Source: Shigella phage Sf23
Sequence record: MF158046
Length of the DNA: 64,000 bases
Direction: 5' to 3' (one strand)
Shown here: in pieces, positions 54,719 to 55,549 of the stretch
Layout of the letters: each line of letters begins with the position of its first letter
Position numbering within the stretch: the stretch's first letter is position 1
Notes under the pieces: model-generated
Seen by the model: only the letters and a program-made list of their open reading frames with translations
Database searches by the model: none
Told to the model about the DNA's origin: nothing
Program-made: the position numbers and the translations under genes

Positions 54719-54794
54719 TGGTCGAGGCAGTAGGGATCGAACCTACGACCTAGGACTTAGAAGGTCCTTGCTCTTCCTTCTGAGCTATGCCTCG
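54719..54794 (-). tRNA. tRNA-Arg (anticodon UCU)
   Basis: Hand-folded cloverleaf: acceptor CGAGGCA/TGCCTCG, anticodon loop CTTCTAA, T-loop GGTTCGATCC, CCA encoded. Confidence 0.8.
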
Positions 54795-54798
54795 TATT

Positions 54799-54873
54799 TG
54801 GCGGACGTGATAGGATTCGAACCTATAACCAATCGCTTAACAGGCGATCGCTCTGCCATTGAGCTACACATCC
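54799..54873 (-). tRNA. tRNA-Asn (anticodon GUU)
   Basis: Hand-folded: acceptor GGATGTG/CACGTCC, anticodon stem ATCGC/GCGAT with loop CTGTTAA, T-loop GGTTCGAATCC, CCA encoded. Confidence 0.75.
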
Positions 54874-54877
54874 AAAT

Positions 54878-54964
54878 TGGTGGGGAGTGATGGAGTCGAA
54901 CCACCCGAGTCGCAATGACAATGGATTTACAGTCCACACCGCTACCTCTACGGGATAACTCCCC
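54878..54964 (-). tRNA. tRNA-Tyr (anticodon GUA), class II with long variable arm
   Basis: Hand-folded: acceptor GGGGAGT/ACTCCCC, anticodon loop CTGTAAA, long variable arm GTCATTGCGACTCGG, T-loop TTCGACT, CCA encoded; resembles E. coli tRNA-Tyr. Confidence 0.75.
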
Positions 54965-54976
54965 TAATTCATAATT

Positions 54977-55051
54977 TGGTGGCCCTGGGTGGAATTGAAC
55001 CACCATCTGGCGATTATGAGTCGCTTGCTTGAACCTTCCAGCTACAGGGCC
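54977..55051 (-). tRNA. tRNA with CAU anticodon (Ile2/Met type; T4 tRNA-Ile position)
   Basis: Hand-folded: acceptor GGCCCTG/CAGGGCC, anticodon loop CTCATAA, T-loop GGTTCAATTCC, CCA encoded; 1 nt from tRNA-Thr. Confidence 0.75.
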
Positions 55052-55052
55052 T

Positions 55053-55128
55053 TGGTGCTGATTGACGGAATCGAACCGCCGACCTTCTCATTACAAGTGA
55101 GTTGCTCTACCTACTGAGCTAAATCAGC
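55053..55128 (-). tRNA. tRNA-Thr (anticodon UGU)
   Basis: Acceptor GCTGATT/AATCAGC, anticodon loop CTTGTAA, T-loop GGTTCGATTCC, CCA encoded. Confidence 0.8.
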
Positions 55129-55133
55129 AAAAC

Positions 55134-55223
55134 TGGCGGAGGCGATAGGATTTGAACCTATGAGTCGCCGGAGCGACTGCCGGTTTTCAAGACCGGTGCA
55201 TTAAACCACTCTGCCACGCCTCC
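55134..55223 (-). tRNA. tRNA-Ser (anticodon UGA), class II
   Basis: Acceptor GGAGGCG/CGCCTCC, anticodon loop CTTGAAA, long variable arm, T-loop GGTTCAAATCC, CCA encoded. Confidence 0.8.
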
Positions 55224-55225
55224 AG

Positions 55226-55299
55226 TCTCCATACAAGGATTTGAACCTTGGACCTCCTGATCCCAAATCAGGCGCTCTACCAAACTGAGCTACACGGAG
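55226..55299 (-). tRNA. tRNA-Pro (anticodon UGG)
   Basis: Acceptor CTCCGTG/TATGGAG, anticodon loop TTTGGGA, T-loop GGTTCAAATCC; no encoded CCA; 2 nt from tRNA-Ser. Confidence 0.8.
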
Positions 55300-55309
55300 T
55301 AAATTAAAT

Positions 55310-55383
55310 TGGAGCGGATAATGAGAATCGAACTCACATCATCAGATTGGAAGTCTGAGGTAATACCATTATACGATATCCGC
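55310..55383 (-). tRNA. tRNA-Gly (anticodon UCC)
   Basis: Acceptor GCGGATA/TATCCGC, anticodon loop CTTCCAA, T-loop GGTTCGATTCTC, CCA encoded. Confidence 0.8.
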
Positions 55384-55388
55384 AAATT

Positions 55389-55475
55389 TGGTGCGAGAAG
55401 TGGGACTCGAACCCACAAGGAAATCATTCCGCAGCATTTTAAGTGCTGTGCCTTTACCAATTTGACCATTCTCGC
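55389..55475 (-). tRNA. tRNA-Leu (anticodon UAA), class II
   Basis: Acceptor GCGAGAA/TTCTCGC, anticodon loop CTTAAAA, long variable arm, T-loop GGTTCGAGTCC, CCA encoded. Confidence 0.8.
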
Positions 55476-55476
55476 G

Positions 55477-55549
55477 CTGGGAATAAAGGACTCGAACCTT
55501 TGCATCCTGGAATCAAAATCCAGTGCCTTACCAACTTGGCTAATTCCCA
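55477..55549 (-). tRNA. tRNA-Gln (anticodon UUG)
   Basis: Acceptor TGGGAAT/ATTCCCA, anticodon loop TTTTGAT, T-loop GGTTCGAGTCC; no encoded CCA; 1 nt from tRNA-Leu. Confidence 0.8.

Follow-up and report, generated by a model that had tools for sequence, protein, structure and literature searches.

The ten-tRNA array of Shigella phage Sf23: very probably a segB-free allele of the T-even tRNA operon

Introduction

Does a phage tRNA array that contains genes missing from T4 represent something new, or is it T4 that departs from the rule? This tRNA locus is a well-documented arena, both for homing endonucleases that target tRNA genes and for phage tRNAs that offset the tRNA-cleaving defences of the host. 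The question is raised by a stretch of 64,000 nucleotides of Shigella phage Sf23 (record MF158046; hereafter the window), in which an initial annotation had found, by hand folding, ten tRNA genes in one minus-strand cluster. Two of them, tRNA-Tyr and tRNA-Asn, were described as not expected from T4 and, by implication, as extra genes added to the T4 array. Here we argue that the locus, taken as a whole, is very probably an allele of the T-even (Tequatrovirus) tRNA operon that has ten tRNAs and no segB.

Layout of the tRNA Array

Over the 64 kb of the window ARAGORN called exactly ten tRNAs, which all lie on the minus strand between positions 54719 and 55549, in the transcription order Gln-Leu-Gly-Pro-Ser-Thr-CAU-Tyr-Asn-Arg. 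All ten (10/10) also exceed the gathering score of Rfam family RF00005, nine of them with 59–74 bits (E 1e-10 to 1e-14), tRNA-Tyr being the exception. The identities and the order obtained by hand are confirmed by both programs, as is the T4-like dimeric spacing proposed for Gln-Leu, Pro-Ser and Thr-CAU, where the gaps measure 0, 1 and 1 nt, respectively. The remaining intergenic gaps are of 4–12 nt, none being ORF-sized, and ORFs are absent inside the array. CCA is unencoded in Gln and Pro only, and encoded in the other eight genes. The first six genes are the following:

55476–55549, minus strand: tRNA-Gln (UUG), called by ARAGORN and by Rfam (67.4 bits); first of the Gln-Leu dimer; CCA not encoded.
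55389–55475, minus strand: tRNA-Leu (UAA), called by ARAGORN and Rfam; long variable arm; CCA encoded; 100% identical to T4.
55310–55383, minus strand: tRNA-Gly (UCC), called by ARAGORN and Rfam; CCA encoded; 100% identical to T4.
55225–55299, minus strand: tRNA-Pro (UGG), called by ARAGORN and Rfam; first of the Pro-Ser dimer; CCA not encoded; 100% identical to T4.
55134–55223, minus strand: tRNA-Ser (UGA), called by ARAGORN and Rfam; long variable arm; 97% identical to T4.
55053–55128, minus strand: tRNA-Thr (UGU), called by ARAGORN and Rfam; first of the Thr-CAU dimer; CCA encoded; 96% identical to T4.

The tRNA-Gln is 100% identical to those of JLBYU31 and RB51, and only 89% identical to those of T4, T2 and T6 because its anticodon stem is wholly exchanged; it belongs to the majority allele, found in about 311 records versus about 127 for the other allele. 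At the 3′ end of tRNA-Ser the window reads CCTCCGCCA where T4 has CCTCCG-TAA, CCA being encoded in the window and not in T4.

The array lies between the trna.2-4/internal-protein genes and the e.8-e.1/lysozyme side, as in T-even genomes. The neighbouring ORFs upstream in JLBYU31, to which the flanks of the window align, are annotated Trna.2, Trna.3 and Trna.4, and for the six flanking ORFs of the window all PHROG hits are to families of unknown function. Four non-coding elements adjoin the tRNA genes:

55550–55640, minus strand: non-coding leader that separates tRNA-Gln from the 174-aa ORF upstream of it (stop near 55636).
54598–54717, minus strand: homologue of rnaD (T4 species 2 stable RNA), which immediately follows tRNA-Arg.
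54453–54591, minus strand: homologue of rnaC (T4 species 1 stable RNA), identical to annotated T4 rnaC at 136 of 139 positions.
54379–54402, minus strand: intrinsic terminator with a 10-bp stem (7 G-C pairs) followed by TTTTT.

By analogy with T4, the stretch from Gln to rnaC would be co-transcribed and processed as one minus-strand unit. As is established T4 biology, a long precursor would be cut by host RNase P and other RNases into monomers and dimers, and the CCA-adding enzyme of the host would complete tRNA-Gln and tRNA-Pro. The leader is nearly invariant in an alignment of the window with T4, T2 and Aplg8. No sigma-70 promoter was found on the minus strand in 54200–55800, the single scan hit being no better than shuffles, and the motif TTGCTTGA upstream of Gln was dropped as a candidate MotA box, being unconserved in T4, T2 and Aplg8. 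The terminator closes the tRNA-rnaD-rnaC unit, and the equivalent site is annotated as a terminator in Aplg8. A 94%-identical, 36-nt copy of the terminator is found at 53815–53850.

In a local alignment, rnaD matches annotated T4 rnaD at 103 of 118 positions over 54714–54598, its central part being variable. For rnaC, ARAGORN at a relaxed threshold draws the 3′ part of about 95 nt as a cloverleaf whose acceptor stem has 8 bp, whose T-arm is CCGGG/TTCGAAT/CCCGG and whose variable arm is long. The whole rnaC folds with −49.3 kcal/mol (z = −3.8), and since the hairpins of the T-arm and variable arm survive in this minimum-energy fold while the complete cloverleaf does not, the modelled 3′ domain is only tentatively tRNA-like. 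Neither rnaD nor rnaC matched any Rfam family at gathering or at E ≤ 1, and the sub-threshold Rfam hits to tRNA-Sec (on Tyr), Plastid-ycf2, YrlA and isrK were set aside as chance or tRNA cross-matches.

The CAU, Tyr, Asn, and Arg Genes

The last four genes of the array are those that set the window apart from T4:

54977–55051, minus strand: CAU-anticodon tRNA, called by ARAGORN and Rfam; software label Met.
54878–54964, minus strand: tRNA-Tyr (GUA), called by ARAGORN and by Rfam (30.2 bits); long variable arm; CCA encoded.
54799–54873, minus strand: tRNA-Asn (GUU), called by ARAGORN and by Rfam (74.1 bits); CCA encoded.
54719–54794, minus strand: tRNA-Arg (UCU), called by ARAGORN and Rfam; CCA encoded; allele other than that of T4.

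The CAU tRNA aligns over its full or nearly full length with genes annotated as tRNA-Ile in E. coli (76–87% identity in 12 rows sampled across the ranking), and is best read from this likeness as tRNA-Ile2 of the lysidine type, decoding AUA. It is identical (100%) in T2, RB51 and JLBYU31 and 99% identical in phage rV5, and has only 63% identity to the tRNA-Ile of T4. Similarly, tRNA-Arg is 63% identical to T4 and T6, 99% to T2 and Aplg8, and 100% to JLBYU31.

ARAGORN calls both Tyr and Asn and places them where hand folding had put them, between the CAU tRNA and Arg. The tRNA-Tyr is marginal in RF00005 (cut-off 29 bits) because its variable arm is long and one D-stem pair is mismatched, and this low score together with the mismatch could be taken to mean that tRNA-Tyr, and perhaps also tRNA-Asn, is no longer a working gene but a decayed tRNA-like pseudogene. 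We consider this very improbable. The gene has a full ARAGORN cloverleaf with GUA anticodon and encoded CCA, and its sequence is kept at 94–98% in T6 (98%), rV5 (97%) and the phage-like plasmid pEC881_2 (94%), with 99% identity in T2; the two differences from T6 fall in the anticodon stem and the T stem. The T6 tRNA-Tyr is expressed, being visible on a northern blot, and its over-expression rescues infection from the Septu defence (Chihara et al., 2026; PMC13096335). As to tRNA-Asn, it is the top Rfam scorer among the tRNAs of the window, identical (100%) to that of T2 and JLBYU31, with an 84%-identical allele in RB51. We thus regard both as genuine tRNA genes of the T-even allele.

segB and the Cassette Swap With T4

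The annotation of T4 (NC_000866) agrees with the initial statement that T4 has eight tRNAs without Tyr or Asn; in the annotation comparison tRNA-Asn is also missing from T6. Neither Tyr nor Asn has left a remnant that blastn-short could find in the 10-kb T4 locus. However, the implied picture of two genes added to a T4 array does not hold, since the slot occupied by CAU-Tyr-Asn-Arg in the window holds Ile-segB-Arg in T4, and the CAU (Ile) and Arg genes on either side are alleles only 63% identical between the two phages. As the flanking alleles differ as well, it is the whole CAU-Tyr-Asn-Arg block that, by its sequence, is an alternative cassette to Ile-segB-Arg, as was reported for T2L in 2008. 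The absence of Tyr and Asn from T4 is explained by the replacement of this cassette with Ile-segB-Arg.

The same cassette was reported in T2L, RB1 and RB3 (EMBL AJ880101, AJ884577, and AJ884578) by Brok-Volchanskaya et al. (2008; PMC2330249), who mapped the preferred cleavage site of SegB to tRNA-Asn, found that about 1250 bp of T2L are replaced by T4 sequence in T4 × T2L crosses, and concluded that segB is a recent acquisition of T4. An exact copy of this recognition site is present in the window:

54797–54823, minus strand: preferred 27-bp SegB recognition site GGTTCGAATCCTATCACGTCCGCCAAA, which covers the T-arm, the 3′ acceptor strand, CCA and 2 nt past tRNA-Asn.

The secondary SegB site GGTTCAAATCCTATCGCCTCCGCCAGT, also known from the 2008 work (PMC2330249), is located within tRNA-Ser, and the two sites differ exactly at positions 6, 16, 18, 26, and 27, the T2L-site positions of PMC2330249. 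No SegB-like ORF was detected in the 64-kb window by tblastn with T4 SegB, T6 SegB and the RB51 endonuclease (best E = 0.45), nor did tblastn give a significant match in the window to either of the two ORFs found inside the T2 cluster. The exact site being kept and segB being absent from the 64 kb of the genome that the window covers, the locus would be a recipient allele. SegB, a GIY-YIG homing endonuclease, would cleave inside tRNA-Asn, and since the preferred site lies within this gene, homing destroys it. Conversion of the window allele by T4 or T6 would be the expected outcome of a mixed infection, its site being identical to that of T2.

Our own sample of 13 loci agrees with such mutual exclusion: all seven phages with a close SegB (7/7) lack tRNA-Asn, and in none of the six loci with tRNA-Asn (0/6) does a close SegB lie between CAU and Arg. 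However, CM8 carries neither Tyr nor Asn and yet has no close SegB, so that SegB homing is not the sole route of loss.

Distribution and Origin of the Cassette

The Tyr-Asn block was found in 435 phage records, T2 and RB51 included, and a T4-like segB in 126–183. The block is shared by several Tequatrovirus species (T2, RB51, Aplg8, gizh); the RB51 annotation states that the Tyr and Asn genes are conserved in RB14, and the Petrov 2010 review lists ten tRNAs for RB3, RB14, RB18, RB26, and LZ2. The junction Asn-Arg-rnaD is kept at 99–100% in UFV13, TH09, and GiZh. Over the 24-kb surroundings the best matches are Tequatrovirus genomes (95–98.6%), and no record is identical to the whole window. 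Ten tRNAs including Tyr and Asn are thus the common state of T-even-type phages and T4 is the exception; the cluster has already been described and is a known allele, not a new one. The remark that Tyr and Asn were not expected from T4 stands insofar as T4 lacks both, but they are unexpected only if T4 is taken as the norm, which the 435 records speak against.

Could the eight-tRNA state of T4 nevertheless be ancestral, and Tyr and Asn, with their CAU and Arg alleles, a recent lateral gain from an unrelated coliphage? The Vequintavirus rV5, close to the window in the CAU (99%) and Tyr (97%) genes, is only 66–83% identical in Thr, Pro, Ser and Arg, and the homology ends about 5 nt outside the Tyr gene. 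Moreover, a 94%-identical tRNA-Tyr is found in a different array on E. coli plasmids of about 110 kb. These matches indicate that single tRNA genes move between phage types. Such a recent gain is nonetheless quite unlikely in our view. The cassette is the majority state of the T-evens and is spread over several of their species, whereas segB has been demonstrated to be a mobile, invading element by which the cassette is lost in crosses, and one that the 2008 authors concluded to be a recent arrival in T4 (PMC2330249). It adjoins several differing CAU and Arg alleles (T4, RB32, OES_C-1), as expected of an invading element. The reading that we prefer, that of an established T-even allele from which T4 departs by the segB cassette, would also accommodate an old exchange with phages of the rV5 kind.

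Recent capture of Tyr and Asn from the host is rejected because blastn gave no chromosomal tRNA-Tyr or tRNA-Asn match in 5,426 E. coli genomes, the best chromosomal alignment of that search being a tRNA-Lys/Val junction at 72.6%. An Asn-to-Thr anticodon shift on pEC881_2 was likewise discarded, the plasmid tRNA-Thr being nearer to the Thr (82%) than to the Asn (67%) of the window.

Codon Usage

The classical account of the T4 tRNAs, well established and summarised in PMC11555353, is compensation for codon usage, and it is possible, if doubtful, that the extra tRNAs serve only this end in an AT-rich genome, with no role in defence or in conflict with homing endonucleases. The window has a GC content of 34.9%. 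Compared with a host sample of 29 E. coli ORFs only, UAU is 1.99-fold and AAU 1.85-fold commoner in the window, all Tyr codons together being 1.41-fold and all Asn codons 1.25-fold as frequent, and the A/U-ending codons of the other eight tRNAs are 1.4–2.2-fold commoner. The phage tRNAs would read A/U-ending codons, of which a phage of 35% GC makes greater use than its host does. Codon usage was nevertheless rejected as the sole explanation, since the excess is modest and extends beyond Tyr and Asn: Lys codons (2.15-fold) exceed it and Asp codons (1.32-fold) match it, yet the phage has a tRNA for neither. Furthermore, tRNA-Tyr matters for the escape of T6 from Septu, and a T6 mutant that carries a deletion within its tRNA-rich region is more Septu-sensitive (PMC13096335). 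Codon and defence roles can also coexist, and both are compatible with the locus being a T-even ten-tRNA allele.

Host tRNA-Cleaving Defences

Three isotypes of the window, Tyr, Asn, and Thr, are targets of known tRNA-cleaving defences. The Tyr isotype is attacked by Septu EcB88 (PMC13096335) and by PtuAB of retron-Eco7, which the tRNA-Tyr of T5 resists (PMC11555353), and the PARIS nuclease AriB attacks tRNA-Asn and tRNA-Thr of the host, against which nuclease the T5-type tRNA-Lys, tRNA-Thr and tRNA-Asn act (PMC12409363). By analogy, the extra tRNAs of the window probably buffer the phage against such defences. T4, devoid of tRNA-Tyr, is unable to escape Septu. For Tyr, however, the benefit may be limited: T6 can escape by amplifying a 718-bp Tyr+segB unit, a process that needs SegB. 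Septu itself cleaves the T6 tRNA-Tyr, in its variable arm, and the gene is of benefit only via dosage or amplification (PMC13096335). Since the T6 gene helps only by dosage and thereby needs SegB, a single copy without segB, as in the window, may give little protection.

It is positions 39 and 41 that make the T5 tRNA-Lys AriB-resistant (PMC12409363). The anticodon arm of the window tRNA-Asn reads ATCGC-CTGTTAA-GCGAT and, at the level of sequence, its U36-A-A-G39-C40|G41 differs from the host UAAUC|C at both of these positions; AriB resistance of this tRNA is suggested by these two nucleotide differences. The tRNA-Asn allele of RB51 has UAAUC|A at this place. The window tRNA-Thr, with U36-A-A-U-G|A41, departs from the AriB motif of host tRNA-Thr (UAAUC|A) at position 40. 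A phage without tRNA-Lys would probably stay PARIS-sensitive, as T4 does (PMC12409363).

One could go further and regard the cassette as a counter-defence module, in which Tyr, through its dosage, would buffer the phage against Septu as well as retron-Eco7, and Asn, altered at positions 39 and 41, would resist AriB. This would explain why most T-evens retain Tyr-Asn (with or without His), and the ten-/eight-tRNA polymorphism would be kept by opposing forces: segB lands in tRNA-Asn and its homing drive removes Asn, while host tRNA nucleases would select for keeping the gene. We regard this proposal as unlikely. A related but weaker proposal concerns rnaC: co-transcribed with the tRNAs, and with a modelled CUUUUAA(A) loop that is Lys-like, it might act as a decoy for tRNA-Lys-directed nucleases.

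Implications

At its tRNA locus T4 is unrepresentative of its own genus, and a difference from T4 at this locus is therefore weak evidence of novelty. The window adds one more intact, ORF-free and segB-free allele and opens no new question. We would like to point out that it would offer a clean recipient for SegB homing, or a background for studying single-copy Tyr and Asn against Septu, retron-Eco7, and PARIS.

Comparison With Known Systems

The anti-defence tRNAs of the T5 type share isotypes with the window, but belong to unrelated phages and have different tRNA sequences, and the window has no tRNA-Lys. T6 carries Gln-Leu-Gly-Thr-Ile (T4 type)-Tyr-segB-Arg (T4 type), with segB in place of Asn and without Pro and Ser; the variable arm of its tRNA-Tyr, the part cleaved by Septu, is identical in the window. 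T4 shares the genomic neighbourhood of the window and has eight tRNAs, segB, rnaD, and rnaC. Its genes from Gln to Thr agree with those of the window in order and in dimer spacing and are 89–100% identical, but it carries the minority tRNA-Gln allele, and its Ser and Ile genes are without the CCA that is encoded in Ser and CAU of the window.

T2L, RB1 and RB3, like the window, have CAU (Met/Ile)-Tyr-Asn-Arg instead of Ile-segB-Arg, with the SegB site in tRNA-Asn. The T2 genes (PV648363) are 100% (CAU), 99% (Tyr), 100% (Asn), and 99% (Arg) identical to those of the window, but in T2 an ORF replaces tRNA-Thr and another (trna.2) lies between Arg and rnaD, which leaves nine tRNAs, whereas Thr is retained in the window and both ORFs are missing. 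JLBYU31 (OK272473, Tequatrovirus gizh) has the same ten annotated tRNAs in the same order, each 100% identical, in an array that, like that of the window, contains no ORFs. Its rnaC loop is one A shorter, so that ARAGORN calls a tRNA-Lys in JLBYU31, but within the cluster there is no substantive difference, and 1801 nt including the flanks, rnaD, and rnaC align with the window in one piece at 98.3%.

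The ten-tRNA array

ARAGORN, run on the 64-kb window, calls exactly ten tRNA genes at 54719-55549, all on the minus strand and, in transcription order, Gln(UUG)-Leu(UAA)-Gly(UCC)-Pro(UGG)-Ser(UGA)-Thr(UGU)-CAU-Tyr(GUA)-Asn(GUU)-Arg(UCU). All ten exceed the gathering score of the Rfam tRNA model, nine of them with 59-74 bits. The tRNA-Tyr clears the cut-off of 29 only narrowly, with 30.2 bits, because its variable arm is long and one pair of the D-stem is mismatched; its cloverleaf is otherwise complete. Both methods thus agree with the identities and order that the initial annotation had obtained by hand folding, Tyr (near the cut-off) and Asn included, and the T4-like dimer spacing proposed there is real: Gln and Leu adjoin with 0 nt between them, Pro-Ser and Thr-CAU are each separated by 1 nt, and all other gaps measure 4-12 nt.

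The 3' CCA is encoded in eight of the ten genes and missing from Gln and Pro, which are the leading genes of the Gln-Leu and Pro-Ser dimers. Unlike their T4 counterparts Ser and Ile, the tRNA-Ser (CCA at 55134-55136, minus strand; CCTCCGCCA vs T4 CCTCCG-TAA) and the CAU tRNA (54977-54979, minus strand; GGGCCACCA vs T4 Ile GGGTCA-TAT) encode it, so this allele should depend less than that of T4 on the host CCA-adding enzyme.

The CAU tRNA is labeled Met by the software. The twelve E. coli matches sampled across the ranking are all annotated as tRNA-Ile (76-87% identity), with no tRNA-Met among them, and the most plausible reading of the gene is an Ile2-type tRNA, which would decode AUA after lysidine modification. 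This agrees with the annotation of RB51 and with the way in which the CAU tRNA of T4 is usually treated.

An alternative allele to the T4 cassette

A 24-kb stretch of the window matches many Tequatrovirus genomes at 95-98.6%, none exactly, and the phage is of the T-even type (Tequatrovirus). The T4 locus (NC_000866) reads Gln-Leu-Gly-Pro-Ser-Thr-Ile(CAU)-segB-Arg-rnaD-rnaC, where segB (666 bp) is a GIY-YIG homing endonuclease gene. ARAGORN calls eight tRNAs in this locus, and blastn-short detects no remnant there of the window Tyr, Asn, CAU or Arg genes, which bears out the initial statement that T4 has eight tRNAs without Tyr or Asn. Alignment of the array with T4, T2 and Aplg8, together with per-gene identities, shows that the Gln-to-Thr block is common to the window and T4 (89-100% identity), whereas the CAU and Arg genes share only 63% identity with T4 Ile and Arg but 99-100% with their counterparts in T2, Aplg8 and Escherichia phage JLBYU31. 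CAU-Tyr-Asn-Arg (~330 bp) is thus an alternative allele to T4 Ile-segB-Arg (~1.3 kb). A simple insertion of two extra genes into a T4 array is refuted, since the flanking CAU and Arg genes are themselves other alleles.

The tRNA-Gln (55476-55549, minus strand) has a fully swapped, still complementary anticodon stem (CTGGA-TTTTGAT-TCCAG vs TAGCA-CTTTGAC-TGCTA in T4/T2/T6; window loop UUUUGAU), the rest of the gene being the same as in these phages. This allele, common to RB51 and JLBYU31, occurs in ~311 records vs ~127 for that of T4.

SegB and the loss of tRNA-Tyr and tRNA-Asn

In the sequenced tRNA regions of T2L, RB1 and RB3, segB is absent and tRNA-Met(CAU)-Tyr-Asn-Arg lies in its place; SegB prefers a 27-bp site within tRNA-Asn; a weaker site lies in tRNA-Ser, and the two differ at positions 6, 16, 18, 26 and 27. 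When T4 and T2L are crossed, inheritance of segB approaches 100%, and ~1250 bp of T2L DNA, these four tRNA genes included, are lost (Brok-Volchanskaya et al., 2008, PMC2330249). The preferred target is intact in the window, as GGTTCGAATCCTATCACGTCCGCCAAA (54823-54797) differs from the window tRNA-Ser site at exactly the five published positions. Since tblastn with T4 or T6 SegB finds no homologue in the 64 kb, the window probably carries a recipient allele, and a T4-type loss of Tyr and Asn would follow from segB homing that replaces the CAU-Tyr-Asn-Arg cassette.

The relatives sampled show the same division. A close full-length SegB goes with absence of tRNA-Asn in seven of seven loci (T4, T6, RB32, OES_C-1, BCPEco_001, G8, fPS-2), T6 retaining Tyr with segB in the Asn slot, and those with tRNA-Asn (T2, Aplg8, JLBYU31, RB51, 11B_SA_NWU and the window) have no close SegB between CAU and Arg. 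CM8 lacks Tyr, Asn and a close SegB; other deletions therefore occur too.

More broadly, the cluster is a hot spot of endonuclease genes, and each of these displaces tRNAs (L-numbers denote sequence extracts of relatives, with their own coordinates). RB51 (L006 1643-2251) and CM8 (L017 960-1568, 1787-2395) are loci of endonuclease genes; their endonuclease between Gly and Ser, with Pro lost, is 82-83% identical to SegB over the N-terminal 117 aa and has a different C-terminus, and CM8 has in addition an HNH endonuclease in place of Gln. In 11B_SA_NWU (L016 1279-1899), a SegB-like gene (50% identical) separates His from Arg, and Asn is intact. OES_C-1 (L012) is left with only Gln, Leu, segB and Arg, and T2 (L003 2020-2421) has a 134-aa ORF in the Thr slot. 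In Aplg8 (L002 3227-3301 and 3416-3491), the tRNA-Asn carries one G to A change at SegB-site position 6, one of the five preference positions (PMC2330249), and an eleventh tRNA, His(GUG), lies between Asn and Arg, as it does in 11B_SA_NWU. The extra tRNAs that vary within the genus (Tyr GUA, Asn GUU, His GUG) are all of the GUN-anticodon group.

Codon supply and tRNA-cleaving defences

The window has 34.9% GC, and the ten tRNAs would supplement A/U-ending codons enriched in the phage.

Table. Codon enrichment over a small E. coli sample (29 ORFs)
CAA: 2.2-fold
UUA: 2.1-fold
AGA: 2.0-fold
ACA: 1.8-fold
UCA: 1.7-fold
CCA: 1.6-fold
AUA: 1.5-fold
GGA: 1.4-fold
Tyr, total: 1.41-fold
Asn, total: 1.25-fold
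Lys, total (phage without tRNA-Lys): 2.15-fold

This enrichment fits supplementation without being specific to Tyr and Asn, since Lys is more enriched and yet the phage has no tRNA-Lys.

Septu EcB88 cuts tRNA-Tyr in the variable arm; T6 tRNA-Tyr over-expression rescues infection, and T6 escapes when SegB drives tandem amplification of a 718-bp unit made up of Tyr and segB, whereas T4, without tRNA-Tyr, is unable to escape (Chihara et al., 2026, PMC13096335). The window tRNA-Tyr is 98% identical to that of T6, with the same variable arm, and should behave like it toward Septu. Since Septu cleaves the T6 tRNA-Tyr as well, protection is a matter of dosage; that by the window gene would be so too, with no segB in the window for amplification. 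PARIS AriB cuts host tRNAs at U36-A-A-U-C/N41, its targets being Lys(UUU), Thr(UGU) and, to a lesser extent, Asn(GUU). The window tRNA-Asn (UAAGC/G) departs from this motif at positions 39 and 41, the two that confer resistance on T5 tRNA-Lys, which suggests AriB resistance of this tRNA. Because it has no tRNA-Lys, the phage would probably stay PARIS-sensitive, like T4.

Exchange of tRNA genes

The Tyr-Asn block has no BLAST-detectable relative on the host chromosome. The CAU and Tyr genes (54878-55051, minus strand) match their counterparts in the unrelated Vequintavirus rV5 (L007 1505-1591 and 2076-2150) at 99% and 97% identity, the homology ending ~5 nt beyond Tyr and rV5 Thr, Pro, Ser and Arg being only 66-83% identical to the window genes. 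E. coli plasmids of ~100-110 kb (pEC881_2, L010 1201-1287) carry an Asn-Tyr-Thr-Ser array whose tRNA-Tyr is 94% identical. These similarities indicate that single tRNA genes are exchanged between phage families, which is compatible with the explanation by a segB-free allele and is no demonstration of a recent cassette gain here.

The unit downstream of tRNA-Arg and its neighbours

Beyond Arg lie homologues of the T4 stable RNA genes rnaD (species 2) and rnaC (species 1):

54717-54598, minus strand: rnaD homologue, directly after Arg, 103/118 identical to T4 rnaD
54591-54453, minus strand: rnaC homologue, 136/139 identical to T4 rnaC
54402-54379, minus strand: intrinsic terminator, next after rnaC

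There is no ORF within the tRNA-rnaD-rnaC unit. A sigma-70 scan finds no promoter adjoining the cluster; co-transcription and processing of the unit are therefore presumed by analogy with T4.

The function of rnaC is still given as unknown (PMC3014915, PMC9697503). Its 3' ~95 nt (54453-54546, minus strand; L005 3056-3149) can be drawn as a tRNA-like cloverleaf, in which the acceptor stem has 8 bp, the T-arm (CCGGG/TTCGAAT/CCCGG) is perfect, the variable arm is long and the CUUUUAA(A) loop is like the anticodon loop of tRNA-Lys(UUU). ARAGORN labels it tRNA-Lys(ttt) in JLBYU31 and, at relaxed threshold, 'tRNA-??? (ttta)' in the window and T4; in the minimum-energy fold of the whole rnaC, only the hairpins of the T-arm and the variable arm are retained. 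A copy of the SegB core motif GGTTCGAATCC is present in the rnaC homologue.

The 36-nt terminator region (54370-54405) is duplicated at 53815-53850 (94% identity), 555 bp downstream along transcription. The two copies bracket a 157-aa ORF (53855-54328, phrog_2280), absent from T4 and annotated in RB32 and RB51 as 'flanked by 34 bp imperfect direct repeat', which has the appearance of an indel cassette with a terminator repeat at either end. Directly past the terminator T-run and upstream of this ORF, a candidate T4 late-promoter-like TATAAATA was read by eye (54366-54373, minus strand). Between trna.2 and tRNA-Gln, a 174-aa ORF (55636-56160, minus strand; phrog_2290), present in JLBYU31, RB32, T2 and CM8 and absent from T4, T6 and RB51, is another presence/absence polymorphism at the cluster border.

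Distribution among known phages

The annotated array of JLBYU31 (Tequatrovirus gizh) has the same ten tRNAs, all 100% identical to those of the window, and 1801 nt around the cluster align in a single piece at 98.3%. The 186-nt Tyr-Asn block occurs in 435 phage records (at least 80% coverage), including T2 and RB51, and the RB51 annotation gives Tyr and Asn as "conserved in RB14"; T4-like segB DNA is found in 183 records, with coverage of at least 80% in 126 of these. Published tRNA counts are 8 for T4, 9 for T2, 7 for T6, 8 for RB32, 9 for RB51 and ten each for RB3, RB14, RB18, RB26 and LZ2 (Petrov et al., 2010). T4 thus has the minority arrangement, at Tyr-Asn and at tRNA-Gln alike. The cluster is not the unexpected feature that it had seemed, as ten tRNAs with Tyr and Asn are common, annotated and published: it is the common, already known segB-free allele of the T-even tRNA operon.
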